Shown in pieces: positions 34,960 through 62,690 of a stretch of 64,000 nucleotides of DNA. Every line of letters starts with the position of its first letter. Within the stretch, counting starts at the first letter, position 1. The DNA is from an uncultured delta proteobacterium (lineage in GTDB: Bacteria; Desulfobacterota; RBG-13-43-22). The notes beneath the pieces were generated by a model, which was given only the letters and a program-made list of their open reading frames with translations, was not told the DNA's origin and did not search any database. The stretch lies in NCBI GenBank assembly GCA_963802945.1, contig CAWDKY010000014.1:64001-128000 (forward strand), given 5' to 3'. The position numbers and the translations under genes were made by a program.

Positions 34960-35036
<77 letters not shown>

Positions 35037-37051: not shown

Positions 37052-37164
37052 AAAAGGATTCACCTAAACGGGATACTGGACTCCAATTTGAGTAATTACT
37101 TTAGGAAAGATTGTATATCAAAATTGATGGGTAAACTAGCCTGCCATAAACGCAGGTGTATTAT

Positions 37165-37227
37165 CGTCATGCCGGACTTGATCCGGCATCCAGTTTTTTT
37201 CTGGCTTACGGCTTTCGCCGGAATGAC
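37165..37227. repeat. GTCA...TGAC-bounded REP-like palindromic doublet
   Basis: gtcatgccggacttgatccggcatccag ... ctggcttacggctttcgccggaatgac. Confidence 0.75.
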
Positions 37228-37283
37228 TATCTCGAAATACACCACAAGGAAAATGCCTTTAGAAGTTTAAAACTCAAATTAAG

Positions 37284-39158: not shown

Positions 39159-39203
39159 AAAAGCAGTCATCTAAGTCCATGTTGACAAATAGTTTCCAAG
39201 ATT

Positions 39204-39335
39204 GTCACCCCGGCGGACCCCGGATCAAGTCCGGGGCAGGCGCCGGGGTCCAGAAATCAAACGGGAGAACTTTGAATAAAATTAACGGCAGGAACCGTAC
39301 TCAGTCACCTGGATTCCGGCGTTCGCCGGAATGAC
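39204..39335. repeat. GTCA...TGAC-bounded REP-like doublet with nested inner palindrome
   Basis: gtcaccccggcg[gaccccggatcaagtccggggcagg]cgccggggtccag ... ctggattccggcgttcgccggaatgac. Confidence 0.8.
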
Positions 39336-39394
39336 GTTAATTTGGTTTTGGCGAAATTTAGAAATTCATAAAATAATTGTATACGAAAAGAAAT

Positions 39395-40252: not shown

Positions 40253-40305
40253 GTGTAGTTGTAATTTCATTTTTTTAAAAAGAACTTTCAGGGACTATTA
40301 ATAAT

Positions 40306-40468
40306 AAGCACGAAATTCGAAGTCCGAAATTCGAAACAAATTCAAATGACCAAAATTAACAACCTCTTTCCCTCTGAGACGAATATTGTCAAAGGAGTGG
40401 ATGTTTCTGTCCATTTGATATTTATTATTTAGATTTGTTTCGTATTTCGATATTAGGATTTCGGATTT
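40306..40468. repeat. long heptamer-unit hairpin (CGAAATT / ATTTCG)
   Basis: aagcacgaaattcgaagtccgaaattcgaaacaaattc ... gatttgtttcgtatttcgatattaggatttcggattt. Confidence 0.8.
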
Positions 40469-40524
40469 AATAAAACTAATGAACTCATTCGGGGCGGATA
40501 TCCAGTAATTGACAAGGGACCCAA

Positions 40525-44955: not shown

Positions 44956-44971
44956 GGCGTTTCGTGAAAAT

Positions 44972-45113
44972 AGGGTTTCAAAGATTCAGAGGTTTCGAGG
45001 ATTCAAGGTTATAATATCCGGTATACAGGTTCAGATCGGATTTCCGTGAATAGGACTTTAGAGCTCGGAACGTTAGACCTTGGCCTTGAACCTGCTAGAA
45101 TATGAGTCCTTGG
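44972..45113. repeat. degenerate octamer-unit hairpin
   Basis: ggtttcga ggattcaa ... ccttgaacc, same unit family as 15031 and 31720. Confidence 0.4.
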
Positions 45114-45136
45114 AGTAAAATTGAATTTTGGAGCAA

Positions 45137-45627
45137 TGCATGTCTTTAACTGAACCACCTGAAATCATCGCCTTCGTTTGTCACTGGTGTGCCTATGCCG
45201 GGGCCGATCTGGCGGGGATTTCCCGTATCCAGTATCCGCCGAATGTACGTCTGGTGCGGGTCATGTGCACGGGACGAATTCATTCAGGCTTTCTCCTGCA
45301 TGCCTTTTTCGAAGGTGCGCAAGGCGTTTTGGTTTCCGGGTGTCACCTCGGCGACTGCCATTACCTGGAAGGTAATGTGAAATGCCAAAAGGTGATCGAA
45401 GAAACCTGGGAGTATCTGCGGCTGTTTAGGGATTGACGAAGGGCGGCTCAGGATCAAATGGATTTCCGCCTCGGAAGGGGCCGAGTTTGCCAAGGAGATC
45501 CAAGAGTTTGTTTCATTTCTCCAAGGGCTGGGAGAAAAACCTCTCGCCGATAAAAGAAAATGGGATCTTAAAGGACTGCCATCAGCGGATAATATCGGTC
45601 TTGATAAAGGGCCACCGCTGTTAAGAG
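45137..45627 (+). CDS. mvhD: MvhD-like [2Fe-2S] domain (+1 indel near 45427); probably the N-terminus of a fusion with the downstream HdrD-like ORF
   Basis: FVCHWCAYAGADLAG, RVMCTGR, GCHLGDCHY; shifted frame continues LGIDEGRLRIKWISASEGAEFA. Confidence 0.85.
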
Positions 45628-46734
45628 ATGAGCAGATTGCCAACCTGCATGGAATGCAGCAGTTGTAGCGGCACCTGCCCGGTCAGCCGTGAAAATCCTC
45701 TATTTTCCCCGAAACAGATCATTAATCGGACGGCCATGGGACTTGAGGCCGATATCCTTCAAAGCCGCGAGGTCTGGGCCTGTCTGGGGTGTGCTCAATG
45801 CAATACACGCTGTCCGGCCCTGATCGATATCTCGGAATTCAACCGCTCCTTTCGATACCGAGCACGGGAAGCCGGGAATCCGCCAATGGAAAGCCATCAC
45901 GGCATTCATCAAACCATTGCCCGATTGCAGAGGCATCCCCTTTCGCAAAAACGTACGGACTGGGCGGAAAAGACCGGGAATTTCAAATCAACCGGGGACT
46001 ATTTTTATTTTGTAGGCTGTTTGCCTTATTTTGATATCACCTTTCGCTATCTAAATATATCACCGCTGGAAAGTGCCCGAAGCGTACTGACTCTATTGAA
46101 TCGAATCGGAATCGAACCGGTCATCAGCAATGACGAAAGGTGCTGCGGGCACGATGCCCTTTGGTGCGGCGAAGAGGACACTTTCCTGGAGTTGGCCTTA
46201 TGGAACCTTGAGATCCTAAAGGCCTCGGGAGCCAAAACCGTCCTATTCAGTTGTCCGGAAGGCTATTCGACCTTTAAATATTATTATCCCAAATATGTTG
46301 GAGAACTGCCTTTCGAGGTTGTCCATCTGGCCGAATTTTTTGCCCGTGAAATACCCAAGTCAGGGTTGAAGCTGAAACCGTTTTCCGATGGTGCGGTCAC
46401 CTATCAGGACCCTTGCCGGTTGGGACGCTGGGCCGGGATTTATGAACCGCCCAGGGAATTAATAAAATTGGTTTCAGGAACGAAACTCATTGAAATGGAG
46501 AGGACCAGAGAGAATGCCCTGTGCTGCGGAACCAGCGCCTGGATGGAATGTTCCAGTTGTTCCAAGGTCATTCAGACCGAACGACTCATGGAAGCTCAGC
46601 AAACCGGTGCGAAGAAACTGATTACCGCTTGTCCTAAATGCCGGATTCATCTGACCTGTGCTAAACTGGGAGAAAATATTGATATCGGCGTGAAAGACAT
46701 TTATACTTTTTTGGCAGAACACCTAGAAGATTAG
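45628..46734 (+). CDS. HdrD/GlpC-like Fe-S oxidoreductase (2x[4Fe-4S] plus two CCG domains)
   Basis: CMECSSCSGTCP, CLGCAQCNTRCP, ERCCGH, YQDPCRLGR, LCCG, TACPKC. Confidence 0.88.
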   Translation: MSRLPTCMECSSCSGTCPVSRENPLFSPKQIINRTAMGLEADILQSREVWACLGCAQCNTRCPALIDISEFNRSFRYRAREAGNPPMESHHGIHQTIARLQRHPLSQKRTDWAEKTGNFKSTGDYFYFVGCLPYFDITFRYLNISPLESARSVLTLLNRIGIEPVISNDERCCGHDALWCGEEDTFLELALWNLEILKASGAKTVLFSCPEGYSTFKYYYPKYVGELPFEVVHLAEFFAREIPKSGLKLKPFSDGAVTYQDPCRLGRWAGIYEPPRELIKLVSGTKLIEMERTRENALCCGTSAWMECSSCSKVIQTERLMEAQQTGAKKLITACPKCRIHLTCAKLGENIDIGVKDIYTFLAEHLED

Positions 46735-49102: not shown

Positions 49103-49167
49103 GCTGCCTATCCATCGTCTCTCCCTGACCGAGAATAACTTAATGCTGTCCCTGGTTTTTTTCGCCA

Positions 49168-49213
49168 GGGGTTGTTAGCCAAGTCCGTTCTGCACGAACG
49201 TCCCGTCTTATTT
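49168..49213. repeat. intergenic repeat family copy F (right end only)
   Basis: ggggttgttagccaagtccgttctgcacgaacgtcccgtcttattt matches 56771-56816. Confidence 0.8.
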
Positions 49214-49323
49214 CCTAGGTACGTGGTTGAACGACAATTTTATAAAAGCGGGGCTAACGTGGAACTGCAATAGAGTTGAAGATGTGTTTCAGCCATCGTT
49301 TTTATTTGGAGTTAAGGAATTAA

Positions 49324-50568
49324 ATGGTCAAAAAAATAAAAAATATCTTTTACGGCTGGTGGATAGTTATTGCCTCTTTTGTCTTGCTGGTCATAGCTGG
49401 GGGAACGGCCCTCTATGGCTTTACGGCTTTTTTTAACCCTATATCTTCGGAAATGAAGTGGGGGAGTGCGGCAGTATCTTTTGCTTTCTCTTTGAGGAGT
49501 GTCGAGGGTGGGGTTTTTCAACCTCTCATAGGTATTTTCGTCGAACGCCTTGGCGTCAGGAAATGTATCTTCGTCGGCCTAACGCTCATGGGGTTTTCGC
49601 TATTTCTTCTCAGTCGAATGACGTCGCTCACGATTTTTTATGTAGGTTTTGTGATCTTATCGTTAGGATTCACAATGGCTGCCGGTATTGCTGAATACAC
49701 GGCCGTAGCGAATTGGTTCAAGAAGCAACGTTCATTAGCCCTTGGCTTAGTTACAACCGGATGGGGCGTCTCCGGCCTAATGACGCCTATCATCGCCATG
49801 ATGATAAGCTTTGTCGGATGGCGTGAGACCATGTTTCTTCTGTGCCCCTTCATCATGGTGATTGGAATTCCCCTGTCTTTTATGATCAGAGACCGGCCCC
49901 AATCTTACGGGATGCAGCCGGATGGTGTCATGCTGGAAGAAAATCCCACGGAGACCGCTCATTTTCAAGAAGGGATGGGACTTACCCTGAAGGAAGGCCT
50001 GAAAACAAGGACGTTCTGGATGCTTTTTCTCTACACCTTCTGCATTGAGTTTGCCTTCAGTACTATTCCCGTGCAGGAAATGCCTCACCTGATCAATGTC
50101 GGCATATCGGAAAAATTGGCTGCCTTTACTATGGCCGGCTATGCTCTGGTAAGCCTGGTTGGCAGACTCTTTATTTCCTGGTTGGGCGACACTTACAGCA
50201 AGAAACATCTTCTCATAGTCTCAGCAGCCATGCAGGCTACCGGTTTTTTCATTTATGCCAAGATAAGCAGCCCCTGGATGATTATCCCCTTCATCATCCT
50301 CTACGGACCAGGCTTCGGCGCTACGACCCCCCTTCTTCCGGCGATTCAGGCCGACTATTTCGGAATCAGGTCCTTCGCCTCTCTTCGGGGTATGATGTCC
50401 ATAGGGTATGCTGTCCCAGGCATCATTGCTCCTGTTTTCGCCGGCTGGATATTTGATACCTATCACAGTTACACGATTGCTTTTCAAATCTACGCCTTAG
50501 TGGCGGCCCTGTCTATTCCGGCCTTGATGATGATACCAAAAAAATCAAAAACAGAAAATTCGGGATGA
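49324..50568 (+). CDS. MFS transporter (OFA/monocarboxylate-like)
   Basis: FYGWWIV start, ~12 hydrophobic helices, ANWFKKQRSLALG, ADYFG. Confidence 0.88.
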   Translation: MVKKIKNIFYGWWIVIASFVLLVIAGGTALYGFTAFFNPISSEMKWGSAAVSFAFSLRSVEGGVFQPLIGIFVERLGVRKCIFVGLTLMGFSLFLLSRMTSLTIFYVGFVILSLGFTMAAGIAEYTAVANWFKKQRSLALGLVTTGWGVSGLMTPIIAMMISFVGWRETMFLLCPFIMVIGIPLSFMIRDRPQSYGMQPDGVMLEENPTETAHFQEGMGLTLKEGLKTRTFWMLFLYTFCIEFAFSTIPVQEMPHLINVGISEKLAAFTMAGYALVSLVGRLFISWLGDTYSKKHLLIVSAAMQATGFFIYAKISSPWMIIPFIILYGPGFGATTPLLPAIQADYFGIRSFASLRGMMSIGYAVPGIIAPVFAGWIFDTYHSYTIAFQIYALVAALSIPALMMIPKKSKTENSG

Positions 50569-50595
50569 ACATAGGAATGGAAAGGAGAACTTATC

Positions 50596-51762
50596 ATGTA
50601 CACGGTTCATATCCATTTTACCAAACGACTGGCCAAGGTTCAGGAGGCCATTAAAAAGCATAATCTGGACATCCTGATCGGGACCCGTCTCAAGACCATT
50701 ACGCATGTCTGCGGCGCCTTCTGCCCCTGGCGGAGTGGGGTTATCATCCCGGCCTCAGGGGAGATCTGTCTGATACCTCCATCGATGGATGTGAATCGCC
50801 TGGCTCAGGAAGGCTGGCTTGAACAGGTGGAGGGATACGGCAAACTCACCTTGATGGAAACTATCATCCGGAAGATCCGAAGTCTGGGTCTGGAGGAGGG
50901 GAGAATAGGCTTCGAGAGCGGGTCTTCAGCCTACCTTCCCGAGGGTTACTTAAGCGTTTGGGAGTATCAGGAACTGCAGAAAGGGCTTCCGAAGGCCACC
51001 CTGATTAATGCGGTTGAGATCTTCGATCAGCTCACGCTGGTGAAGGAAGAAGCCGAAGTGCGGCTAATGAGACAGGCCACGGCCATCGTGGATACCGCCC
51101 ACGAGGAAGTGCGCAAATTTTTACGGCCCGGCGTAACCGAGAAACAAATTGCCGGGGTCGCGGAAAAGGTGATGCGGGATGTCGGCAGCGAATTCGCCTG
51201 GACCTTCACGGGCGGGCAGGAAGTGGCTTCCGGTTATCGGACTTGGACAGGGGCCTGCACCCCGGCCACGGATAAGATCGTCCAATACCATGAATTTGTT
51301 CTGCTCGATCTTCATGGCATGTACGGGCTGATGCTTGGAGACGTCTCACATAACGCCATTATGGGCCAGCCGGATGGCGCCCAGAGAAAGGTGATCGATG
51401 CCTACGTAAAAACCTGTGAGCGTATCGTGGAGGTCATGCGTCCGGGAAAGAGCCTGGGAGAAGTCGGCAGAGATGTCCGCGAATTTGTGGTGCGTAACGG
51501 CTGGGATAAGTTTATCCGGGGATTCGGTCATGGGATCGGTCATGCCGGCCATGAATGGTATCCCACGTTGACCGATATCAAAATTCCCCACGTCTCCGAA
51601 CCCGACTATGTCATCGAGCCCAATTACATACAGATGATTGCGGTTACGGCCAATCAGGTCGGTGTGGGCGGTTTAAGAATGGAAAGGCCCCTGCTCATGA
51701 CGGAGACAGGCAATGAACTGCTTTCCAAAATGCCTTTTGAGCCTTGGGTCATCGAAAGGTGA
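50596..51762 (+). CDS. M24 (Xaa-Pro peptidase/creatinase-fold) hydrolase
   Basis: Creatinase-type N-domain, VKEEAEV, PGVTEKQIA, GHGIG, GLRME. Confidence 0.8.
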   Translation: MYTVHIHFTKRLAKVQEAIKKHNLDILIGTRLKTITHVCGAFCPWRSGVIIPASGEICLIPPSMDVNRLAQEGWLEQVEGYGKLTLMETIIRKIRSLGLEEGRIGFESGSSAYLPEGYLSVWEYQELQKGLPKATLINAVEIFDQLTLVKEEAEVRLMRQATAIVDTAHEEVRKFLRPGVTEKQIAGVAEKVMRDVGSEFAWTFTGGQEVASGYRTWTGACTPATDKIVQYHEFVLLDLHGMYGLMLGDVSHNAIMGQPDGAQRKVIDAYVKTCERIVEVMRPGKSLGEVGRDVREFVVRNGWDKFIRGFGHGIGHAGHEWYPTLTDIKIPHVSEPDYVIEPNYIQMIAVTANQVGVGGLRMERPLLMTETGNELLSKMPFEPWVIER

Positions 51763-51821
51763 TTTTTTGTTGTTAATAACGAAACCTTCTATAACATAAA
51801 TACTTTTTTTTAGTGAAGGGT

Positions 51822-51861
51822 GCAGCGCAACAAAGAAGATAGACTTTTTACGAAGTTGTCA
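51822..51861. repeat. right end of the TCGTAAAAAGTC terminal-repeat family
   Basis: gcagcgcaacaaagaagatagactttttacgaagttgtca resembles 30035-30058. Confidence 0.6.
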
Positions 51862-52906
51862 TTCTTCATACAAGGCCCTTTGCTCAGGGTTCATGTTTGA
51901 CAGATGCTTTTTAGCCTCTTCGGGCGAAACGGCCATTAAAGTACCGTCCGGCTCCTGAATGACTACCCCACTGTTGATGATCATTTTATAACGCTCCTGA
52001 CGCACCTGTTTGTCGGGGTGGCAGATAAACTGGCAGTGACCGCAGGTGAACTCAAGGAGGTTTCCGGGCATCAAGGCATGGTAAAGCCCATAATCCGCTT
52101 TTTTTCTGTTGCGATAAGCGGGGACCGCCTTTATCAAGGCGCCCAGAAATTCCTCATCCTTTTCAGGGATCGGGAAACGTCCCGGTGACCAGGTGGACCA
52201 CTTCCCGGATTGATGCAAACCGGTAAACCCTCCACAAACGTATTCGCAACGGTTGTAAGAACGACGCTTGGAATAATTGAAATTTCTATTCCCCAAGGTG
52301 ACCGTGGTTTCCTCATCCGAAGACATCAAACCGGATGCACAGGCGGACATACAAAGACGGCAGCTATCGCAGTAATTATCCTCAGGCGGTAAAGGATCGG
52401 TGGGGATCAGTTCCGCTTCGGTGACCACAGAGGCCAGAATGATGGCCGCCCCGACCTTATTCATAATGACATTACCGGACAGACCAAAGTAACCGATCCC
52501 TGACCTTACGGCCAGATAGCGGTGGGAAATAGGGGGTTTTTCATCATAAGGGCCGTTTGGAGTGTCTTTTCGATAAACGGTATTGGCCACTAACGGCACG
52601 GATTTATAGCCCTTCATATTCAGAAACTCCGACAACTCCAAAGCAAGGCCGCTGGCCATGTTATTGACCCGGCGGTTGTCAATGTTGGCCGAAGCCATAT
52701 CCTCTTTTTTCAAAAAACGTTCGATAGCTCTTTGATCTAACGGCACGGCAAAGACGACGGCCGACCTGGCCTCCGGAAGGACATAAGTCAGGTCTGTGGA
52801 GGGCGGCCCACCTTCAAGGGTTTCTGTGGTTGTAATCCCGACGGCAATAGCGCCCGAATTCTTAACTAAATTTTTCACATATCTGCGTTAATTGCTCCTT
52901 ATCCAT
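51859..52906 (-). CDS. QueG/reductive-dehalogenase superfamily cobalamin 2x[4Fe-4S] protein (true ATG probably 52906, +1 indel near 52885)
   Basis: SHRYLAVRSGIGYFGLSG, LASVVTEAELIPTDP, CDSCRLCMSAC, CGHCQFIC; AAGGAGG RBS precedes ATG at 52906. Confidence 0.8.
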
Positions 52907-52938
52907 TTTTTCCTCCTTACCGTATAAATTTTATTCTC

Positions 52939-53387
52939 TCATAAAAGCAACCCAAGCCTGCGGAGATCTCTCAGATTTCCGCAGGGGGCACAGTCTGCGG
53001 CACTACATCCCTCGAAATTTTGGTTTTTTCAAGTAAGCTAAGCCAGCAATCTTTTCTCCGCGCGGAGGTTAAGAGGTCTATTTCGCTTTCAATCCTGGAA
53101 AGGGAGTCAGAAAGCGGCCTTCTCAATTTTCGAGTTAGCCTTCGATCCTTGGTATTCTCAGATTTAGAAAGTAAAAGGATCCTACGGATATCTTTAATGG
53201 AGTAACCGATACGTTTGAGAACCTGGGCAGTTTGGATTACTAAAACTACCTCTTCCGCATATAATTTACGACCTCCAGGTGTAATGGAGATTGGAGTTAA
53301 AAGTCCTTCCGCCTCATAATGTCGAATTGTCCGAGGCGTGCAACCTGTGTGGCGGCAAATCTTGCCAATCAATATTCCATCGGCCAT
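52939..53387 (-). CDS. MerR-family regulator, Cys-rich C-terminus obscured by indel
   Basis: IGKIC...TPRTIRHYEAEGLL...GGRKLY HTH; alternative frame ends EGCSAADCAPCGNLRDLRRLGLLL* at 52939. Confidence 0.8.
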
Positions 53388-53422
53388 AAGATTTCTTTAG
53401 GATCCTTGAGGCTTTATTTTTA

Positions 53423-53445
53423 TTACATTACGTAACGTAATATAA
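53423..53445. promoter_or_regulatory. candidate MerR-type operator
   Basis: ATTACGT-A-ACGTAAT dyad (53427-53441) about 40 nt upstream of the merR start. Confidence 0.6.
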
Positions 53446-53540
53446 TTAGAAGATCATGCCAAGCTTTTTTAAAAAGAGAATTAAAATTAGGTTGAGGTTG
53501 CTTAGAAGGAGTTGATTGTTTTGATAGAATAAACAAATAT

Positions 53541-53676
53541 AATTAGTGATAGCGCCTAGTTATTAACCTTTGAGGAAAAGGGGACAAAGGTTTCAAAGGT
53601 GATCAGACTGCCGTCGTAACCATAGGTGATAGCTTTTGTCTCCCTGGTGATGTTCCCGATCTTGGGACCACAGAGC
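53541..53676. repeat. intergenic repeat family copy A (RHS-derived)
   Basis: aaggtttcaaaggtgatcagactgccgtcgtaaccataggtgatagcttttgtctccctggtgatgttcccgatctt; degenerate left end aattagtgatagcgcc. Confidence 0.85.
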
Positions 53677-53700
53677 AATCCCGGTGCTGACAGGGGAATA

Positions 53701-54291
53701 TTACTTTGCAGCTGCCTGAAATTCGTTAGACTGAATGAACGCCAACAATTGCTTCTGTATCTCATTGAATACCACATCAAACGCCTCACGTGTCTTGCCA
53801 GGGGATGAAAGCGAAAATTCTCTCTCGAAGTTAATTTGTCTCTGAGCAAGGACCTTTCCATCCAGCGGATCAACAAGTTTTGCTGCAAGTTCGGCTTCTA
53901 TCATATACCTATTGCCATACCCATCACACCAAAAGCGAATTACATCAATAACCAACCTGGGGGCTTTCCTGTCGGTCCCTTCTGAAGTATAGCCGGTATG
54001 CTCCAGGGTATTTTTAGCCATCCCCCTCAAAACTATGTTAATCTCTTTTCCTTCCTCTGTTTGCAGGTCAAAAGGATTTCCATATCCTCCACGAATTTTC
54101 CCTAATAACCCAAAACTCTGGCCTCCATAGTTTATAAGACGTTTGTTGTTGACCTCTCCAACCACGACCGTCCCCCGCCTCACATCCGTTTTAGAAAGCG
54201 AATCAACTTTTATATCCATTGACGGAACACATGCACTCAGGAATGAAAGCAATGGCAATGCAAAAAACAATAACTGGGTTTTTTTCATCAT
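53701..54291 (-). CDS. lipoprotein of unknown function (YajG-like fold possible)
   Basis: Signal peptide with lipobox LSAC, GGAGG RBS. Confidence 0.75.
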   Translation of the reverse strand: MMKKTQLLFFALPLLSFLSACVPSMDIKVDSLSKTDVRRGTVVVGEVNNKRLINYGGQSFGLLGKIRGGYGNPFDLQTEEGKEINIVLRGMAKNTLEHTGYTSEGTDRKAPRLVIDVIRFWCDGYGNRYMIEAELAAKLVDPLDGKVLAQRQINFEREFSLSSPGKTREAFDVVFNEIQKQLLAFIQSNEFQAAAK

Positions 54292-54425
54292 GTTCTTGTC
54301 CTCCTCTCTTATGCGATTTTGAGGCCGTTGTATAACAGCCTAGGTAACAATGTTTTTTCCTTAAAGAACCAAGCTTGAAAATTTATCACAGCCTATCATA
54401 ACAGAACCAATCCAAATCATAAGGG

Positions 54426-55190
54426 TCAGGCCGAGGCGCCTCCATCGATCACCAGTACGGAACCGGTAATATAACTCGAAGCATCAGAGGCCAGAAAGAT
54501 GGCTCCTGCGGCGACGTCATTGGGTGTACCAATACGACGCAGGGGGTAGCGATTGATGAGGGCCGCCCTTTTTTCCTCCGTGTCGATGAGAGCTTTGGAG
54601 AAACTGGTCTCCACCAACCCTGGAGCGATGGCATTGACCCGGATATTATCAGGCCCCAGCTCTTTGGCAAACCCTTTGGTCAAGTTGATGATACCGGCCT
54701 TGGTCAAACCATAAGTCACTTCGCCCGGCAACGGTCTGATCCCGGCAATAGAGGAGATGTTGATGATCGAGCCGCCGCCCCGCTTCTTCATCAGCTTGGC
54801 GGCCAATTGTATCATCAGATAGAAGCCCTTGAGGTTGACTTCGAAGGTCTTGTCTATCGTGCTCTCGGGGGCGTCGACGGCCGGGCCGTAATAGGGATTG
54901 GTCGCGACGTTGTTGACCAGTATATCGAGCCCTCCGAGTTCCTGCTCCACTCTGGTGAACAGGAGCTTCATGTCAGCAAGTTTTCCACCGTGGCAGACGA
55001 TAGGAACGGCCTTTCCGCCGCTTTGGCGAATAGAGGCGGCGACTTTTTCCAGGTTCTCCGGCTTGCGTGCCGTGATTACGACGGTTGCGCCCTGTTCGGC
55101 AAACCCTCTGGCGATGGCCTCTCCATTGCCGCGACTGGCTCCGCTTATGATGGCAATACGGTTGGTAAGGTCAAAGTTGGCAGTCGGCAT
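54426..55190 (-). CDS. SDR family oxidoreductase
   Basis: SGASRGNG, DILVNN, YGLTK (YxxxK), RVNAIAPG, VIDGG. Confidence 0.92.
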   Translation of the reverse strand: MPTANFDLTNRIAIISGASRGNGEAIARGFAEQGATVVITARKPENLEKVAASIRQSGGKAVPIVCHGGKLADMKLLFTRVEQELGGLDILVNNVATNPYYGPAVDAPESTIDKTFEVNLKGFYLMIQLAAKLMKKRGGGSIINISSIAGIRPLPGEVTYGLTKAGIINLTKGFAKELGPDNIRVNAIAPGLVETSFSKALIDTEEKRAALINRYPLRRIGTPNDVAAGAIFLASDASSYITGSVLVIDGGASA

Positions 55191-55241
55191 GGCATTTATC
55201 CTTTCATTGATGAATAATAGAACTAACTATTTCAAGGTTAA

Positions 55242-55270
55242 AATATACGAAGAATGATCTTGGATGTCAA
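55242..55270 (-). promoter_or_regulatory. sigma70 promoter of SDR gene
   Basis: Minus strand TTGACA-17nt-TATATT. Confidence 0.7.
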
Positions 55271-55323
55271 AGGAATTTATAAAATATGGGGGCTGGTAGT
55301 ATGGCTAACTTTCTTTATTTTGC

Positions 55324-55352
55324 TTGACAGAAAAATCCTGTTTCAATATATT
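55324..55352 (+). promoter_or_regulatory. sigma70 promoter of enoyl-CoA hydratase gene
   Basis: TTGACA-17nt-TATATT. Confidence 0.7.
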
Positions 55353-55462
55353 CAGTGCCGTAAAGAAGAGAGCCTTTAGTCCATTTCGTTGCAAGGGGCG
55401 CTCCTTTTTTTCAAGAAACCCCCTTCTCAAAAGACAATAATTTTTCGACAGGAGGAGATCAT

Positions 55463-56230
55463 ATGAGTTATGAAAGTATTATTGTAGAAACTAAAGATTT
55501 CATTACCACCATTACCCTCAACCGTCCACCCATGAACGCCGTCAATCATGTTTTGCGTATAGAATTTCAAAAGGCCGTTCAGGAAATCGAAAACAGCAAG
55601 GAAACCCGGGTGGTCATCATTACGGGCGCCGGAGATAGGGGGTTCAGCGCCGGCATGGATTTGTCGGACATGGCCAACTACGGCTTAGGGCCTGACGGCA
55701 ATGAAATCATGAATGCCATTTCCCGTTCGGCGAAGCCCTATATAGCGGCGATCAACGGCCACGCTCTGGGCGGCGGCTGCGAAACCGCTCTGGCCTGTCA
55801 TTTCCGTTTCATGACGGACAGTCCCAAGGCCACGATCGGTCTTACGGAAGTCAATCTCGGCATTACCCCAGGCTGGGGCGGCATCCAGCGTTTGCCGCAC
55901 GTAGTCGGGAAACCCAAAGCCCTGGATATGATTTTGTTCAGTAAGAGACTTACCGGGCCGGAAGCCCTGGCGATCGGGTTAGTCGATCGAGTTGTTCCCG
56001 CCGCCGATCTTATGAAGGAGGCCACAGCGTTTGCCCAGACCCTGGCCAAGCGCGCGCCCCTGTCGGTATCTGCGGTACTGGTAGGCATGAGCGTCGGCCT
56101 GGACAAAGGCATTGATGAAGGGTTGAAAGTGGATCGTGAATGGTCATCTAAACTGGGTGCGAGCAAAGACGCCCAGGAAGGCATGGGGGCGTTTTTTCAA
56201 AAACGCGAACCCGTATTTACCGGGGAATAG
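55463..56230 (+). CDS. enoyl-CoA hydratase/crotonase family protein
   Basis: FSAGMDL, GHALGGGCE, GLTEVNLGITPGWGG (both catalytic Glu present). Confidence 0.92.
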   Translation: MSYESIIVETKDFITTITLNRPPMNAVNHVLRIEFQKAVQEIENSKETRVVIITGAGDRGFSAGMDLSDMANYGLGPDGNEIMNAISRSAKPYIAAINGHALGGGCETALACHFRFMTDSPKATIGLTEVNLGITPGWGGIQRLPHVVGKPKALDMILFSKRLTGPEALAIGLVDRVVPAADLMKEATAFAQTLAKRAPLSVSAVLVGMSVGLDKGIDEGLKVDREWSSKLGASKDAQEGMGAFFQKREPVFTGE

Positions 56231-56250
56231 TCACTGAACATCGCTTTAAT

Positions 56251-56312
56251 AAAAGGCGCAGGCTATCGACTTTAACCTGGCAGTGAGGTCATCAGCCTGC
56301 GCCATTTTTTTT
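56251..56312. terminator. bidirectional intrinsic terminator between convergent genes
   Basis: aaaa-ggcgcaggct...agcctgcgcc-a-tttttttt. Confidence 0.8.
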
Positions 56313-56370
56313 CAAAAATCCTTGGATACCCCGCATGGAAGTATCGGGGTTGAAAAACTAACGGTCCATT

Positions 56371-56652
56371 CTATTTTTTGGCCAGTTGTCTGGCCCAAAT
56401 GGTCAGCCAGATGACGACAAATAACATCAGGGCGATGACGAACTTGGAGGCCACCATGGCCCGCAGCCAGATCGTACGGATTTCCGGCCAGGAAACGCCT
56501 GGACCCCATAAGCAAACTATTCCTGTCGGCTGCTTGTTCATCATCAGTAAATAAACAATCCATTGATACAGCAGGATACAAAAGGCGATTAACAAAGTCC
56601 ACCATCCAGCCGTTGCCGCTCCCCGCACTTTTTTTATAAATAGTTCATCCAT
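56371..56652 (-). CDS. small two-TM membrane protein of unknown function
   Basis: 93 aa, two hydrophobic Trp-rich segments, AAGGAG RBS. Confidence 0.7.
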   Translation of the reverse strand: MDELFIKKVRGAATAGWWTLLIAFCILLYQWIVYLLMMNKQPTGIVCLWGPGVSWPEIRTIWLRAMVASKFVIALMLFVVIWLTIWARQLAKK

Positions 56653-56670
56653 ACCGATCTCCTTTTTTTT

Positions 56671-56810
56671 AAGGTTTCAAAGATGATTAGTCTGTTTTCA
56701 TAACCGTTGTTGATGTTCCTAATCTTCGAACGCAGATATAGTTAAAAGCAAAGTTTTCATCAGAAGTGATGGGTTATCGGCTAAGCACGTTCTGCACGAA
56801 CGCCCCGTCT
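56671..56810. repeat. intergenic repeat family copy B (internal deletion, right end intact)
   Basis: aaggtttcaaagatgattagtctg...gatgttcctaatcttcgaacgcagatatagttaaaa...ttttcatcagaagtgatgggttatcggctaagcacgttctgcacgaacgccccgtct. Confidence 0.85.
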
Positions 56811-57815
56811 TTATTTACTCGGGGAGGGCTTTAAATATTTATCAAACCATTCAACAGCCATCCCGATGGTCTCTGCCCGGCCTTGGTCGTAAATCTGAAA
56901 ATGTGTTCCTGCAAAAACCTCATATTTTGCAGGTACATTACCTTTGACCATATCGTACACCCTTTCCCCATTTTCCCTATTAACAATCAATTCGTCTTTT
57001 TCGGCGACGATGATCAGAATAGGGATCTTTAACCGGCCGGCAAATTCTACAGGACGATATTTTGCAATTCTGGACAAGTGGGGAGTACCGCTGAGGGAAA
57101 ACAGCTTGAAGCCTTGAGGTACCGGATCGATCTCCCCGCGGGCCTGCTGAGTGGCCAGCTTGCGAGGCTGGTAGATCTGATTCACCCAATTGCCGTCCAT
57201 GGAAGGGACATGACTGACGATGCATTGGACACGATCGTCATGTGCGGCCACATAGAGGACATGGCCCCCGCCAAAACTGGTTCCCCAGAGACCGATGCGC
57301 TTGGTGTCCACACCAGGCTCACCGGAAAGAAAGTCGAGGCAATGGATGATGTCTTCGGTCTGGTCAAAGGGGTCCACCAGTTCCCGAATGGCCCGGGCGC
57401 GGACGGTAACATCTCCATTCGCATCAGGAACAGGCATCTTTCCCTTGATGACCAGACGACTGTCACTGTCTCCCCAACCGCGATAGTCAAAAGTCAAAAC
57501 CACGTATCCAGCTTTAGCGAATAGCGGGGCATACCCGGCGTTCAGATGGGACCGCACGCCACCCCATCCATGGCAAAGTATAATGGCCGGGCACTTGTCT
57601 TCGGCTTTCAAACCTTTGGGCCGCCAGAGATCACCGGAAATTCTGGTGCCGTCGCTCCAGATATCCACATGGCGGGATTCTATCCCTACGCTTACGGCCT
57701 CCTCTGACTGCACCTCCCGCGTCCCAAAAAGGATAAGGACCATCAGGGTCATAAGACCGATAACAAAAAAGGTAATGGGAGGTTTTCTCATTTTAAGAGC
57801 GCTCTTTTTTTCCAC
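56811..57815 (-). CDS. exported alpha/beta hydrolase (S15/CocE-like)
   Basis: N-terminal hydrophobic signal, CHGWGG, FDYRGWGDS, GTSFGG nucleophile elbow. Confidence 0.88.
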   Translation of the reverse strand: MEKKSALKMRKPPITFFVIGLMTLMVLILFGTREVQSEEAVSVGIESRHVDIWSDGTRISGDLWRPKGLKAEDKCPAIILCHGWGGVRSHLNAGYAPLFAKAGYVVLTFDYRGWGDSDSRLVIKGKMPVPDANGDVTVRARAIRELVDPFDQTEDIIHCLDFLSGEPGVDTKRIGLWGTSFGGGHVLYVAAHDDRVQCIVSHVPSMDGNWVNQIYQPRKLATQQARGEIDPVPQGFKLFSLSGTPHLSRIAKYRPVEFAGRLKIPILIIVAEKDELIVNRENGERVYDMVKGNVPAKYEVFAGTHFQIYDQGRAETIGMAVEWFDKYLKPSPSK

Positions 57816-57842
57816 CTGGGCACAAGACGACAGCTAATCGTT

Positions 57843-58955
57843 CTAACAAGGCGGCCCATATTGACTCATAATAGCCGTATAGGGAACCACCGTTGGCCTG
57901 GCAAAATTTTGCCTGACATCGTTCAGTTTTTCCCCTCTAATCTCAATATCATTCAGGTTTCCCGGGGTCATTCCAGCCTTCCAGGCCCAGACGAAGGTCG
58001 AGATTTCACTCGGTTGAAAACCCATGATGGAGGCAGCGACCATATCTGTTGCCAGCGGGTTCGTACCGGCAATGATGACATCCATCTTTATCAATTTTCC
58101 GCCTCCCATTGCGGATGGACCCTGTCCTTGCATGGCCATAGACCCATCTATGACCACCAGTCCTAGCTTGTTCGCCCGTACCATATCTACGATAGCAGAG
58201 GCCGTTCCAGAACTCTCCACCTTTGTGGCCTCGGAGTGAACTGCCGAACGGACGGTTCCATAGACTTGCCCGGGATAGACCCCTATGAGGTTTTTCATTC
58301 CCAAGGTGACGGTCGCCAGGCCATGTGTTTTCATCATGGGAACGGAACAGAGGAGGTCGGTGTCGGCCAGTGAACGATGAATACTGATCTCCTTGAAAAC
58401 GAAGTTGTTGGGCAAACTCTTTTTCGACATTTCACCAACATGGAGGTTCACGAGTGGTATCTTGAGCGACTTGGCCAGATCGGAATAACCAAGACTGTCG
58501 AAAACGCTTTTTTGGATCTGGTTGAGCATTTCTTTATCGGTCGTTCTGCAAACACTGCCAAAGATGCCCGGACGTATATTACCAGCCCCCGCGGCTGAGC
58601 CTTCGCCGATGGATACATCTTTTCCGGATTCGATCATGAGTTGCGCCAGCGCCTTGATAACGCTCGGTTTTGTTACATCGGTCGGCGCGGGGCTTACAAG
58701 GTTGGGCTTCAACATGATCCGCTCCTTACCAGACGTTATTGACCGCATGCCGCCAAGCAGGTCTATGGCCTTCCTTAGGGCATAATCGATATTGTCTTTA
58801 TCGATCTTCACAACAGAAACGACGTCTTTGTTTTCTAAAGCCAGCGATTCTTTAAGACCTGGAAAGGCAAAAGAAGTCACGATATTTCCCAACCCTAAAA
58901 CAGCTCCTCCTGCTGCCACTTTTTTAATAAAATCTCTTCTGTTGATTTCTTTCAT
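57843..58955 (-). CDS. Tat-exported DUF362 family protein
   Basis: INRRDFIK twin-arginine signal; LKPNLV, VPMMKTH, VTLGMKNLIG, NPLATD. Confidence 0.85.
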   Translation of the reverse strand: MKEINRRDFIKKVAAGGAVLGLGNIVTSFAFPGLKESLALENKDVVSVVKIDKDNIDYALRKAIDLLGGMRSITSGKERIMLKPNLVSPAPTDVTKPSVIKALAQLMIESGKDVSIGEGSAAGAGNIRPGIFGSVCRTTDKEMLNQIQKSVFDSLGYSDLAKSLKIPLVNLHVGEMSKKSLPNNFVFKEISIHRSLADTDLLCSVPMMKTHGLATVTLGMKNLIGVYPGQVYGTVRSAVHSEATKVESSGTASAIVDMVRANKLGLVVIDGSMAMQGQGPSAMGGGKLIKMDVIIAGTNPLATDMVAASIMGFQPSEISTFVWAWKAGMTPGNLNDIEIRGEKLNDVRQNFARPTVVPYTAIMSQYGPPC

Positions 58956-59156
58956 CGTGACCTCCTATTTTGTTTCTTTCCCTTAGAAAATACATACAGC
59001 GTCTGATGCTCAATAGAAAACAAAAGCCACAACAACCGATTATGTTTTTGCAGACCAACGGTTCCCCAAAATGTACATTATTAATGTTGTTAAGCAGACA
59101 ACCGTTCCCTATTGCCTATTCATCTCCAACAATTCCGAAGATAAATTAGAAATAAA

Positions 59157-59239
59157 AATTAGGGACAGCGCTTCCGTTTTTAGAAAGGTTTCAAAGGTGA
59201 TCAGGCTCCCGTCATAACTGTAGGTGATAGCTTCTGTCC
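59157..59239. repeat. intergenic repeat family copy C (left end intact)
   Basis: aattagggacagcgcttccgtttttagaaaggtttcaaaggtgatcaggctcccgtcataactgtaggtgatagcttctgtc. Confidence 0.88.
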
Positions 59240-59274
59240 GGCTCCACGTCCTGCCTCAGACGAGAAGGGGGATG

Positions 59275-60576
59275 CTATGTGCAAAGTTTTCTTACGATAT
59301 CAATATAAATGGCAGTCCCCTTTATCATATTATCAATAGATATCTTTTCATCCTTTCCATGAATCATATTTAAATGCTCTCCAGGAATAACAATAGGACT
59401 AAACCCATAAGCAGTTATTCCCTTTTCCCTAAAATAACGAGAATCAGATGTCCCAGATAAAAGGTAAAAAAGCATTAGAGAATTTTTAAAATGTTCATTA
59501 AGCACATCCTGAATAATAATAAAATCTTTATTATGGGTATCAGACACATTTCCTTCTGAGGCTAATATTTTTTCTATTTTTATATCCTTATCAGCAAGTT
59601 TTTCCCTTACAAAGTCAACGAACTCATTAATATCCTGACCCGGCAACAATCGGATATCCAGCTGTGCTTTAGCATAATCTGGAATTACATTTATCTTATC
59701 ACCTGCCTTTAACATATTAAGGCTAATGGTGTTTCTTACCATCGCATTTATTTGTGGCACTCCGAGCATACCATTTTTCTTTATTACCCGGGCTAATGTT
59801 TTATATTTGCCATCTTTTTTAAAGGGACTGAGGAAAGTCCATTCGGATGAAAGCTTTTTAAAATAGTCTCCCACGATTGGAGTAATAATTATTGGCAGCT
59901 CTGCTGAAAGAAGCCTGTTTAATGCTTTAGTCATTTTCACTAAGGCATTCTGAAAATGGGGTGTAGAACCATGCCCGGAAGGTCCGTTACAAGTTAACTT
60001 AAGCCAGCATGGTCCCTTTTCAGCAGTGGCAAAAAGCATTATAATTTTATCTGGAATAATATCTGAAATTCCATAGGCACCTTCATTTAAAACAAGGGCT
60101 GCTTTAAAATCATCAGGGTAATTTTCCAATAGGTACCTCATCCCCAACGAGCCCCCCGTTTCTTCGTCGGCCACCGCAAGAAATACCAGGTCGCGATTAA
60201 GCGAGACGTCCTCTCTTCTCATAGCCAAAATGGCCATAAGCTGCATTACACCAATACTTTTCATATCCAGGGCCCCACGCCCACAGATATACCCGTCTAT
60301 GATATTCCCCCCGAATGGATCGAATGTAAACTCCTTGGAGTTTGCAAAAACCACATCCATATGGTTTAGGAGTATAAGGGGCCCTTTTTTACCGGGACCG
60401 GTTAATTTAGCTTTTATGGAAACTCTTCCAGGTTTGGATTCATAAGTCTGGTAGGTTATTTTTTCTTTGTCGAATATTTCAGCAAAGAACTCCACCGCTT
60501 TCGCCTCATTTCCAGGCGGATTTGTTGTATTGATCTGTAGGTATTTTGAAAGAATTTCTACCGGTTCAGGTATCAT
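59275..60576 (-). CDS. M20 family metallopeptidase/aminoacylase
   Basis: LLNHMDVV, GRGALDMK, DEETGG, NEG, HGKDEKI; ATG 60576 after GGGAG. Confidence 0.9.
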   Translation of the reverse strand: MIPEPVEILSKYLQINTTNPPGNEAKAVEFFAEIFDKEKITYQTYESKPGRVSIKAKLTGPGKKGPLILLNHMDVVFANSKEFTFDPFGGNIIDGYICGRGALDMKSIGVMQLMAILAMRREDVSLNRDLVFLAVADEETGGSLGMRYLLENYPDDFKAALVLNEGAYGISDIIPDKIIMLFATAEKGPCWLKLTCNGPSGHGSTPHFQNALVKMTKALNRLLSAELPIIITPIVGDYFKKLSSEWTFLSPFKKDGKYKTLARVIKKNGMLGVPQINAMVRNTISLNMLKAGDKINVIPDYAKAQLDIRLLPGQDINEFVDFVREKLADKDIKIEKILASEGNVSDTHNKDFIIIQDVLNEHFKNSLMLFYLLSGTSDSRYFREKGITAYGFSPIVIPGEHLNMIHGKDEKISIDNMIKGTAIYIDIVRKLCT

Positions 60577-60596
60577 AATACAAACTCCCAAAGCTA

Positions 60597-60650
60597 AGGA
60601 CAGTGCCCGTTTTTAATAAGGTTTCAGAGGTGATCAGACTGCCGTCATAA
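60597..60650. repeat. intergenic repeat family copy D (left end intact)
   Basis: aggacagtgcccgtttttaataaggtttcagaggtgatcagactgccgtcataa. Confidence 0.88.
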
Positions 60651-60666
60651 AAGCTGACCGGATCAT

Positions 60667-62103
60667 CTAATCTTCAATCCCCGCCAATTTTTTAGCCAGC
60701 TTCTTCTTGCTTTCCGTATCACTTTCCCGGAAAAGGGTCACCCTGTGGGCCTCGGGAGAACCACCGCCATGGATATCCGATATAGTATCCGCGCTTTCCA
60801 GGGCCATTTTTTCAACGAGCCTAAACATCTTGACGCGGTTTTCCACGGGGACTCCCTCCGCACCCTTCATGTATTTCTTTAAAAGACCGCCGATCTCCGA
60901 ATTATCAAAGTCCCTGTCGGACGGCAGGTCAGCCACATAACCACCACAGATATCCACCATAAGGCGCATGGCCTCGCTTAATTCCTTCCCTTCATGGATC
61001 TTCGATGCATTGGCCAGGACTGTATCGATAAAATAGGTACCCGAAGGCTCTTTTTTACCTTCATAGGATGAAGCCAAACAACATCCATAGAGGGTTTCAG
61101 CCCTGTGGATCATGTCAATAACCTTCTGCTTAAGATGACCGGCCTTTTGGGTGCCGTTGTAGTCCATCATGGTCAGGGAAGCGCCGATCATGCAGTCGAT
61201 CTTGCCGGCCTTACAGCCGCCGTGACTCTGTCTGTGGAATGAGGAAAAACGGACTACCATTTCCGAGGCGAATTCCGTCTCCCCGCACATAAAGACCCTT
61301 TTCCAGGGGACAAAGACGTCATTGAAAATAATGGTCGGGCAATATTTGGAGTACCTAAAATTGCCAAGGTCGCAGCCGTCCAGTTCGCGGGTGTCCAGGC
61401 TGGATCGTCCTACGACATGGATCAATCCCTTGGTATCGGCCGGCACGGCAAAGGATACCGCGTAATCCTTATCTTCTTTGCTCAAGGCCCTGGTGGGTAA
61501 GACGATAATCTCATGACAGGACAGGGATCCTGTCTGATGCGCCTTGGCGCCGCGCACCACGATCCCGTCATCCCTTTTCTCAACGACGTGCAGGTACATG
61601 TCCTTGTCTTTCTGTTCCGTAGGGCCGAGCGACCTGTCGCCCTTGACGTCGGTGACGGCGGCATTGCCGGTCAGGTCATTTTTCTGCATATGTTTAAGAA
61701 ACTGGATAAAGTTTTCATAATATTTCGTGCCGTATTTCTTATCGATATCAAAGGTCACTATGGATAAAGCGGATAGACAATCCAGGCCGGTGCATCTTTG
61801 GTGGCATGTACCGACCAGGTTGGCCACCTTCCTATTGAGCTTTACCCGCGCGACCAGGTCTTCAATGGAAGAAGGCGGCAAGGTGAAACGGTTGACCGGT
61901 TCGTTAATGAGGGGGCTTTGGGTAACCGCCAGCCCTCGATATTCATCCTTCTCGGCCACTTCATAGGTTACGGCCGTGGCCTCAATCCCGGCCCTGAGCC
62001 TGGGGTTATCTACAATATTCGTAATCCTCTCACCGAACATGAAGGCCGTCGGTTTCAATTTTCGCAAAGACTCTATATATTGTTCTTTGGTCATCAATCC
62101 CAT
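60667..62103 (-). CDS. 4-hydroxybutyryl-CoA dehydratase (AbfD)/HpaB family FAD-[4Fe-4S] protein, divergent active site
   Basis: CHQRC, TDVKGDRS, VRGAKAHQTG, HRQSHGGC, HGGGSP. Confidence 0.85.
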   Translation of the reverse strand: MGLMTKEQYIESLRKLKPTAFMFGERITNIVDNPRLRAGIEATAVTYEVAEKDEYRGLAVTQSPLINEPVNRFTLPPSSIEDLVARVKLNRKVANLVGTCHQRCTGLDCLSALSIVTFDIDKKYGTKYYENFIQFLKHMQKNDLTGNAAVTDVKGDRSLGPTEQKDKDMYLHVVEKRDDGIVVRGAKAHQTGSLSCHEIIVLPTRALSKEDKDYAVSFAVPADTKGLIHVVGRSSLDTRELDGCDLGNFRYSKYCPTIIFNDVFVPWKRVFMCGETEFASEMVVRFSSFHRQSHGGCKAGKIDCMIGASLTMMDYNGTQKAGHLKQKVIDMIHRAETLYGCCLASSYEGKKEPSGTYFIDTVLANASKIHEGKELSEAMRLMVDICGGYVADLPSDRDFDNSEIGGLLKKYMKGAEGVPVENRVKMFRLVEKMALESADTISDIHGGGSPEAHRVTLFRESDTESKKKLAKKLAGIED

Positions 62104-62163
62104 TTATGTTCCTCCTCGTGTTTTTTGAATAAATGCTTATTTCCCGATTATAACTTTAAACTT

Positions 62164-62338
62164 GGCATAGCGCCCATTTTTAGTAAGATTTCAGAGGTGA
62201 TCAGACTGCCGTCATAATGCTGGTGATAGTTTCTGTCTTCCTGGAGATGTTCCTGATCTTCAAACCGCATAGATAGTTAAAAACAACATTTTCATCAGAA
62301 GTGATGGGTTGTTGGCTAAGAATGTTTTGCAAGGGCGT
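62164..62338. repeat. intergenic repeat family copy E (near full length)
   Basis: ggcatagcgcccatttttagtaagatttcagaggtgatcagactgccgtcataa...ttttcatcagaagtgatgggttgttggctaagaatgttttgcaagggcg. Confidence 0.88.
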
Positions 62339-62690
62339 TAAGCTTTACGTACCATAGTTGGTGGTCATTAAAATATGGGAAGTGTCCCTCATTTTCACAT
62401 TTTTTATTGAATTCATTAAGATTTGAATCTCTTGGTTTGGTCCCCCCGTTCAATAAAAATTGCCTCACCGCACGGAATTCAACCTGTGCACCTACAACTC
62501 TTCAAAAAAGTTGGAACTAAAAATTAATGATTATGGATGGAAATATGGGAGAAATGGTTGGACCCCTCTGATCCTGAACTTAAAGTGCCATCGCTCCTTT
62601 TTTGGCCGTAGCCGCCTTCTTTCTTTGGGCTAACTCAGAGCTTATCCCCATGTTCAGGCTGCCCAACTAAGGAATCCACCCCCCCTTCAT

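Follow-up and report, generated by a model that had tools for sequence, protein, structure and literature searches.

In Escherichia coli, Rhs elements were described in the 1980s as 'rearrangement hot spots', multi-kilobase coding repeats dispersed over the chromosome that mediate unequal recombination. In Rhs orphan toxin/immunity arrays a main rhs gene is followed by displaced rhs-CT/rhsI modules. The orphan rhs fragments described in part of PMC3967940 still carry some of the conserved region and recombine with the main gene; a 522-bp stretch in which main and orphan rhs are 95% identical is proposed there as the place of recombination. Vibrio cholerae type VI secretion system (T6SS) effector/immunity arrays (PMC5361080) and firmicute type VII secretion system (T7SS) immunity genes (PMC9484751) are built by sequential displacement or recombination of tandem paralogues. 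How orphan Rhs and contact-dependent inhibition (CDI) arrays gain modules is still debated. Here we describe an islet of genes between glpP and mgsA in the genome of an uncultured member of the Thermodesulfobacteriota, in which blocks of genes are separated by copies of a ~190-nucleotide (nt) repeat that we call R. By its sequence R derives from one internal segment of a teneurin-like YD-shell/Rhs gene and survives as a non-coding relic. Its copies probably serve as passive portable homology for host recombination, leading to the loss, replacement and shuffling of cassettes.

The islet lies in a stretch of 64,000 nt, here called the window, on a 220-kb contig (C14) of the source genome (G000), a 4.37-Mb assembly of 72 contigs with 6.7% contamination. 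Material of the genus comes from peat and wetland, and our genus sample comprised 14 species genomes, the source genome among them. The window's minus strand is taken as the sense of R, most islet genes being on that strand. A repeat search of window positions 47-64 kb found six co-directional copies or pieces of R between glpP and mgsA, and the list of open reading frames (ORFs) together with Pfam placed all six between genes. In window order the locus reads glpK, glpP (+), copy A, MFS (+), M24 (+), a 339-aa ORF (-), MerR (-), copy B, a 196-aa ORF (-), SDR (-), enoyl-CoA hydratase (ECH, +), a 93-aa ORF (-), copy C, an alpha/beta hydrolase (-), DUF362 (-), copy D, M20 (-), copy E, an HpaB/AbfD-family gene (-), copy F and mgsA (-).

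The six copies, all on the minus strand, are described below in profile columns. In all, 25 R copies from five genomes and one metagenome contig were aligned, and the nhmmer profile was made from array copies only, excluding Rhs coding sequence. Copy F (62155..62346; nhmmer E 9e-53; repeat-search match 62158-62346) is full length and lies ~50 nt upstream of the start of the HpaB/AbfD-family gene (62103). Copy E (60589..60650; E 1e-14; match 60591-60650) is the 3' third only, columns ~119-187. It occupies the spacer between the AbfD stop (60667) and the M20 start (60576, the one backed by orthologues), and its 3' end holds the M20 ribosome-binding region. Copy D (59153..59270; E 7e-19; match 59158-59217), just past the M20 stop (59275), joins columns 1-13 to 101-187 across an internal deletion. 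Copy C (56644..56811; E 5e-37) is almost full length, covering columns 1-~160 but for 20 nt deleted internally. It begins ~10 nt past the hydrolase stop (56811) and at its 3' end is fused to the Shine-Dalgarno sequence and ATG of the 93-aa ORF (56652). Copy B (53538..53700; E 7e-27; match 53560-53619) is 5'-truncated (columns ~66-187); it follows directly on the 196-aa ORF, whose stop is at 53701, and ~150 nt separate it from MerR downstream. Copy A (49160..49215; E 4e-4; match 49169-49209) is the 5' end of R only (columns 1-38), with the glpP stop (49102) on one side and the MFS start (49324) on the other. In gene sense, then, copies B, C, D and E start 0-35 nt after the stop of the upstream gene, and C and E extend into the ribosome-binding region of the next. 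A 21-nt insertion in copy B (window 53590-53625) creates an 8-bp inverted repeat, AACCTTTG ... CAAAGGTT.

Much of what the initial annotation had read from the letters is borne out by the repeat search, nhmmer, the ORF list and Pfam: six same-orientation pieces in intergenic spacers only, four of them abutting minus-strand stops (53701, 56811, 59275, 60667), two reaching start codons (56652, 60576), and functionally unrelated genes between them. Its proposal that the blocks differ in base composition holds mainly for M20 (GC 0.36-0.43 against ~0.45-0.58 in the neighbours). The GGGACAGCGCCC-like end that it described is present in D and E, but is degenerate in F and B and absent from C, where R passes directly into the 93-aa ORF start, and from A, of which only the opposite end is there. 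Nor is R scattered around the genome. Searching the source assembly with nhmmer gave 11 rows at E<=1, namely the six array copies, one Rhs-coding match on contig C28 (E 2.4e-19) and four rows of noise (E 0.46-0.88), and BLASTN of the six copies against the 72 contigs found this locus alone plus a weak match on C28. R is thus restricted to this locus in the source genome, apart from the C28 coding match.

The origin of R emerged from its matches outside the array. BLASTN with copy F against 41 related genomes (14 of the genus, 7 of the same family and 20 of the same phylum) matched six, all in the genus, and none of the 27 outside it. One of these matches, in genome G007 (E 5e-11), is not in an array but inside a 2417-aa ORF in which Pfam finds TEN_YD-shell (residues 1451-2281), RHS_repeat, TEN_NHL and a weak PLA2-like tip. 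The segment that corresponds to R is residues ~1870-1930, within the shell. The array-only profile matches both this ORF (E 1e-23) and an orphan rhs fragment on C28 of the source genome (E 2e-19). The C28 region (~104850-117400, locus L029) is a classical Rhs locus whose ORFs are TEN_YD-shell/RHS_repeat by Pfam, the main YD-shell gene being broken into at least four ORFs in the assembly. After the main gene come small unannotated ORFs, together with two to three orphan fragments that share one shell start point, some with PLA2-like tips. These fragments start at residues ~1811-1818 of the G007 protein; the R segment lies ~55 codons further in, and the match to R is in the first of them.

About 115 nt of R align to the G007 and C28 coding sequences at ~80%, and in the Rhs frame R reads ...ENxVFNYLCGxKIGNITKGTExITxxYDGSLITSETL..., canonical YD repeats. 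Two further C28 paralogues keep the same peptide pattern with diverged DNA, which indicates that the segment belongs to the Rhs family and that R derives from Rhs rather than the reverse. The repeat, which the initial annotation could assign to no described family, therefore comes from Rhs/YD-shell coding sequence. Searching the source genome by tblastn with the G007 Rhs protein returned the Rhs locus on C28 and weak NHL-type matches on C30 and C57, with no rhs on C14, and Pfam scans of ORFs in window 33-64 kb and the 18 kb to the right of the window found none either.

The array copies no longer behave as coding sequence. Their differences per codon position of the Rhs frame are flat (895/3327, 986/3360 and 974/3245, or 0.269/0.293/0.300), while four Rhs coding sequences show a third-position excess (68/222, 62/222 and 98/216); array copies compared with Rhs differ by 0.24/0.28/0.415. 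Together with the stops and frameshifts present in the copies, the flat pattern indicates that R is dead coding sequence. One 1-nt deletion is common to copies in four genomes, so the duplicates predate those four species. The copies also have end points in common, 5' at ~GGGCGTTCGTGCAG and 3' at an AAAAACGGGCnnTGyCCC-like motif, which argues that R arose once as a unit and was then copied. In the scheme we propose, R would have come once from the Rhs segment and then been duplicated in direct orientation within one islet anchored by M20 and MFS.

How widely the arrays occur was assessed by running a sequence-only covariance model of R on the 14 genus genomes, and seven matched at E<=0.01. Five genomes (G000, G004, G005, G008 and G011) carry two to six copies each, clustered at one locus. 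The remaining matches are two in Rhs coding sequence (G007, and C28 of the source genome), one solo copy in G008 and a marginal one in G012; the last (G012:C33, E 5.7e-4) was set aside as unrelated intergenic DNA. A metagenome scan based on M20 returned three loci, two of them relevant (contigs L030 and L031), and a scan of genome contigs gave the G005 contig alone. Contigs from four metagenome runs, a small share of each, were also compared with the window and gave one informative joint (run X4). R thus stands at the M20/MFS-anchored locus in four other genomes of the genus and in two metagenome contigs, with different genes between the copies. It lies upstream of M20 in all five array genomes and both metagenome contigs, and downstream of M20 in both contigs and four of the five genomes, G011 being the exception.

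The gene content of these islets is variable. In gene sense, the islet of G005, the closest relative, reads R, flavocytochrome, cytochrome c3, R, M20, R, 93-aa ORF, ECH, R, MFS. That of G004 reads SDR' fragment, R, Usp, R, methyltransferase, r, M20, R, hydrolase', GT2, MFS, R, MaoC; and that of G008 SDR', R, Usp, cell-wall hydrolase, r, 116-aa ORF, r, M20, R, MFS, R, HAD, APH, R, then further genes including an IS4-type transposase, r, MaoC and, further on, glpP. Contig L031 carries SDR, R, M20, R, MFS, and its SDR is 95% identical in amino acids to that of the window over the 125 residues on the contig. Gene order is therefore not constant in the relatives, and comparing the glpP-mgsA interval, as the initial annotation had suggested, revealed differences in the blocks, with one pair of breakpoints inside copies D and C. 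A HepT/MNT-type toxin-antitoxin pair adjoins the G004 islet (L018 7042-7711), and the M20 gene of G008 has an internal stop or frameshift.

The difference with its breakpoints in D and C is resolved to the base. At 93-94% nucleotide identity, G005 L020 3544-5015 corresponds to window 60649-59177 and L020 4964-6371 to window 56714-55303. The two blocks overlap by 52 nt of repeat sequence and skip DUF362 and the hydrolase. In a four-way alignment the lone G005 copy has a D-type 5' part, with D's internal deletion and M20 flank, and a C-type 3' part fused to the 93-aa ORF. It is therefore a D-by-C recombinant, with the block lost in that lineage. A 1959-nt contig from the peat-metagenome run X4, ~95% identical, joins 56670 to 59185 with 12 ambiguous bases, and so skips 2514 nt, exactly the D-C spacing in the repeat search. 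Contig L030 has the same block-less form as G005. As G005, L030 and the X4 contig may be one lineage, we count one event. Misassembly across R is unlikely, because the copies differ by at least 15% and span less than 200 nt.

Other joints point the same way. Past the SDR stop the window and L031 are alike for 20 nt, after which L031 runs into R and M20, and the window into the 196-aa ORF and then a 5'-truncated R and MerR; the same left neighbour is joined to different right neighbours across R. In G005 an unrelated block is preceded by a full R to which the initial ~45 nt of the 93-aa ORF are fused, which shows that R was copied along with adjacent sequence. Reading the locus comparisons by eye we counted six differences in content, of which four are bounded by R on both sides, one on one side and one on neither. 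Bounded on both sides are the DUF362 and hydrolase block, AbfD versus flavocytochrome and cytochrome c3, the methyltransferase of G004 versus the 116-aa ORF of G008, and the G008 insertion between MFS and MaoC (HAD and APH and the genes that follow). Hydrolase' and GT2 in G004 have R on one side.

Nearly every islet block is bracketed by direct copies of R, and it is on this that we base the proposal that the copies act as portable homology. Crossing over between two copies would loop out the block between them, the one case seen directly. A block could be replaced if DNA from a related strain crossed over in both of the R copies beside it, as the R-X-R versus R-Y-R arrangements suggest; a single crossover with a looped-out circle could insert one; and crossovers between non-adjacent copies could shuffle neighbours. 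The scheme needs no dedicated recombinase.

An alternative is that R is inert, each copy being a scar left by an old Rhs orphan array or by segmental duplications, that the islet varies for other reasons, such as being an insertion hot spot or the activity of insertion sequences (IS), and that the joint within R is incidental. The flat codon-position pattern and the truncation of copies at both ends are what such scars would show. The M24-to-SDR difference is large and lacks R at its edges, R is missing downstream of M20 in G012 and G011, and the G008 islet contains an IS4-type DDE transposase (L016 18185-19960). In G012 itself M20 keeps its conserved 3' flank, and its upstream side is a run of N. 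We nevertheless regard inert scars as unlikely. Four of the six content differences have R on both sides and one has it at a single edge, the joint that is resolved keeps register within R, and R is better conserved than synonymous sites, where scars of that age should be nearly unalignable.

Several observations weigh against portable homology as the whole explanation. Base-level resolution was reached for one change only, a deletion, and its three occurrences may go back to a single event. Insertion and replacement by recombination are read from the architecture. Present-day D and C have only ~37 nt in common at ~75% identity, with a longest perfect run of 12 nt, so that the deletion could have come from short-homology slippage as well as from RecA-type recombination. 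The 4.7-kb M24-to-SDR segment of the window, replaced by 295 nt in G005, is the difference with R on neither side. Neither the solo copy in G008, the only clear R outside the locus among the 14 genomes, nor the paired 3' motifs around the G008 116-aa ORF fit the scheme. All the genomes compared are metagenome-assembled and some contigs are short. Finally, R is conserved more than expected. Mean identity is 0.63-0.79 between species and 0.70 within one genome (35 pairs), while four-fold degenerate sites of M20, MFS and glpK are 0.44-0.72 identical when these distant species are compared. It is therefore likely that R is under some constraint, has been homogenised or has travelled in blocks recently exchanged between species, and the excess hints at a constraint or function that a purely passive model would not predict.

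Such a function might be regulatory. R could be a selected cis-acting element derived from Rhs that acts as promoter or 5' leader, as insulator or terminator, or as operator (of the islet MerR, for instance), with recombination as a by-product. The copies are co-oriented with most downstream genes, the sequence just upstream of the M20 and 93-aa ORF start codons comes from the 3' end of R, and the conservation above four-fold sites is fairly even along ~165 nt. The G008 solo copy (G008:C6:544273-544371; L035 8275-8373), which is 5'-truncated and intergenic, likewise lies ~60 nt upstream of a same-sense gene, here for a patatin-like phospholipase. We found no sign of the expected signals, however. 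Rfam has no family in R at the gathering score nor at E<=5, the RNAalifold consensus of R has 0 pairs, and fold z-scores with RNA parameters (0.61 and -0.19) give no unusual stability. A hairpin proposed by hand at the 5' end was 69% paired with weak covariation and was rejected as not supported. Promoter and terminator counts in R are at or below shuffle expectation; there is no sigma-70-like promoter in gene sense, the only hexamer matches being weak (9 of 12) and antisense; and by eye R does not appear to fit sigma-54 or terminal-inverted-repeat (TIR) motifs. The distance from R to the next start ranges from 0 to ~585 nt, and some copies face the 3' ends of opposite-strand genes on the MFS side. 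In three genomes M20 has kept no more than the final 30-70 nt of R, and M20 can therefore do without most of the repeat. A cis-acting role as the reason for R is thus, in our view, quite unlikely.

We think it doubtful, too, that R has been exapted and selected as a 'docking sequence' that makes the islet a recombinase-free, homology-based analogue of an integron, or is served by an unrecognised trans-acting enzyme. If it had been, any R-flanked block would be excisable, exchangeable between strains and re-insertable, and the process behind orphan-toxin arrays would have been repurposed for metabolic genes.

The initial annotation had favoured serial gene accretion at, or mediated by, the repeats, suggesting that one fixed and one variable end were the trace of one-ended HUH/rolling-circle capture and likening the array to an integron. 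R would then be the site or end of a mobile system of one of these kinds, or of a 5'-truncating retro-element, with its enzyme encoded elsewhere. Many copies do keep the 3' motif and are truncated on the 5' side, and the G008 116-aa ORF (L016 10190-10670), which has no Pfam match, is flanked by two copies of that motif. The 10-nt string GGACTAAAAA occurs at both the start and the stop of this ORF. Candidate enzymes exist in the source genome, where Pfam gave 10 matches to Y1 (PF01797), 3 to Y2 (PF04986) and 4 to the tyrosine recombinase family (PF00589; C29, two on C17, and C15).

These matches are all on other contigs, however. None of the three families has a match on C14 or in the Pfam-scanned ORFs of window 33-64 kb and the adjoining 18 kb, there is no adjacent intI, and Pfam scans of the relatives' loci found no HUH transposase adjoining R. 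The Y1/RAYT/IS91 or tyrosine-recombinase gene that the initial annotation expected beside full-length copies was found neither on C14 nor at those loci. A short open stretch upstream of a full R in G005 (L020 3259-3438; also in L030) bears what we take to be a likeness to the N-terminus of Y1 (IS200-like/RAYT) proteins. This 60-aa relic was dropped as evidence, having no Pfam match at E<=1 and one weak tblastx match in the source genome.

The ends of R do not fit a mobile system either. The repeat search found no inverted repeat in R, which has no terminal inverted repeats or hairpin. The notion of one fixed and one variable end is half right, since 5'-truncated, 3'-truncated and internally deleted forms all occur among the 25 aligned copies, with 3'-truncated copies about as many as 5'-truncated ones. 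Unlike an active element, R keeps to a single locus in each genome, the solo copy in G008 being the one exception among 14, and the resolved joint falls in register between two copies rather than at the end of an element. A mobile system of this sort is therefore very improbable. One-ended capture is not supported, given the truncation at either end and the lack of Y1, Y2 and tyrosine-recombinase genes on the 220-kb contig; nor is an integron-like mechanism, given a joint that is a plain in-register repeat-by-repeat deletion, with no attC-like fold and no intI. The earlier observation that the window holds no integrase or attC structure stands. What survives of serial accretion is cassette-like turnover, with at least one block difference whose joint lies in two copies of R, and not HUH or integron capture.

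The genes that have been gathered at the locus are, by Pfam, ordinary. Between copies F and E is the HpaB/AbfD-family enzyme (60667..62103, minus strand), at whose position G005 has the flavocytochrome and cytochrome c3. Between E and D is the M20 peptidase (59275..60576, minus strand), a conserved anchor. The D-C block (56811..58955, minus strand) comprises the DUF362 protein (57843-58955) and the alpha/beta hydrolase (56811-57815), and is missing, in register, from G005, L030 and the X4 contig. The C-B block (53701..56652) has genes on both strands, the 93-aa ORF (-), ECH (+), SDR (-) and the 196-aa ORF (-), as has the B-A block (49324..53387), with MerR (-), the 339-aa ORF (-), the M24 peptidase (+) and the MFS transporter (+), the second conserved anchor. 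The 93-, 196- and 339-aa ORFs have no Pfam matches, and Pfam gives no support to the earlier labels 'QueG-like' and 'lipoprotein'. Between the convergent 93-aa ORF and ECH (window 56210-56350) is a strong GC-rich hairpin, flanked on either side by runs of A and T, which looks like a bidirectional terminator; Rfam gave only sub-threshold STnc40-like matches to it, on both strands.

Elsewhere in the window there are six tRNA genes (404-973, 2531-2604 and 34960-35033), four of them tightly clustered at the window start. Upstream of glpK (35504-46734) are FAD/FeS oxidoreductase genes, including one for a 1476-aa multi-domain protein and genes for HdrD-like CCG-domain proteins, and an FAD_binding_2 gene apparently split into two ORFs (37284-38006 and 38036-38578).

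The R islet offers a traceable case of ~190 nt of dead coding sequence shaping gene-content differences among close uncultured Thermodesulfobacteriota, and should be useful for reading strain heterogeneity and contig breaks in metagenome-assembled genomes. It is also informative about Rhs arrays, as an array architecture that outlives toxin function suggests that such arrays are built by a process which is not confined to toxins and can give rise to an islet of general accessory genes. In the main texts of the literature that we searched we found no account of non-coding Rhs relics bracketing non-toxin metabolic genes.

Among short repeats, R resembles miniature inverted-repeat transposable elements (MITEs) and repetitive extragenic palindromic (REP) sequences in being short, intergenic and non-coding, but it has no terminal inverted repeats or palindrome and, with a single exception, stays at one locus per genome. 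It differs from IS91/ISCR and IS200/IS605 HUH elements in having no Y1 or Y2 gene beside it and no combination of a constant and a variable end, and from riboswitches and structured leaders in having no conserved covarying structure and no match to a curated family. Like an integron array, the islet has co-oriented unrelated genes split by a recurring short element and a content that varies between close relatives. Unlike one, it has no intI, no folded attC-type site and no attI/Pc, its blocks are often multi-gene and on both strands, and its joint is an in-register crossover within the repeat. With the T6SS and T7SS arrays noted above (PMC5361080 and PMC9484751) it shares homology-driven turnover that yields strain-specific strings of genes at a fixed locus. 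In those systems the homology is provided by functional genes and the cargo serves antagonism, whereas here a non-coding relic brackets genes of general metabolism.

The closest parallels are with Rhs itself. As with the E. coli elements, Rhs-derived homology appears to serve chromosomal deletion and duplication, but here it takes the form of ~190-nt dead relics, confined to one islet and bracketing single gene blocks. The orphan arrays described in part of PMC3967940 are closer still, with tandem same-orientation rhs-core fragments, variously cut and each followed by different cargo, and with recombination between common core segments that rearranges the locus. The R fragments differ in being non-coding and in coming from an internal shell segment rather than the boundary of core and C-terminal domain. 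They do not run in frame into a C-terminal toxin domain, the downstream genes having their own Shine-Dalgarno sequence and ATG. There is no main rhs gene near the islet, and the Pfam-assigned cargo (HpaB/AbfD-family, M20, DUF362, hydrolase, ECH, SDR, MerR, M24 and MFS) is not immunity genes. Of four features that mark an Rhs orphan array, the islet thus has the core homology and lacks the other three, an in-frame toxin, a cognate immunity gene and an upstream main rhs. On present evidence R does not represent a new class of mobile element; the islet is an Rhs-orphan-array-like architecture in which the core fragments are dead and the cargo is ordinary metabolic, transport and regulatory genes.

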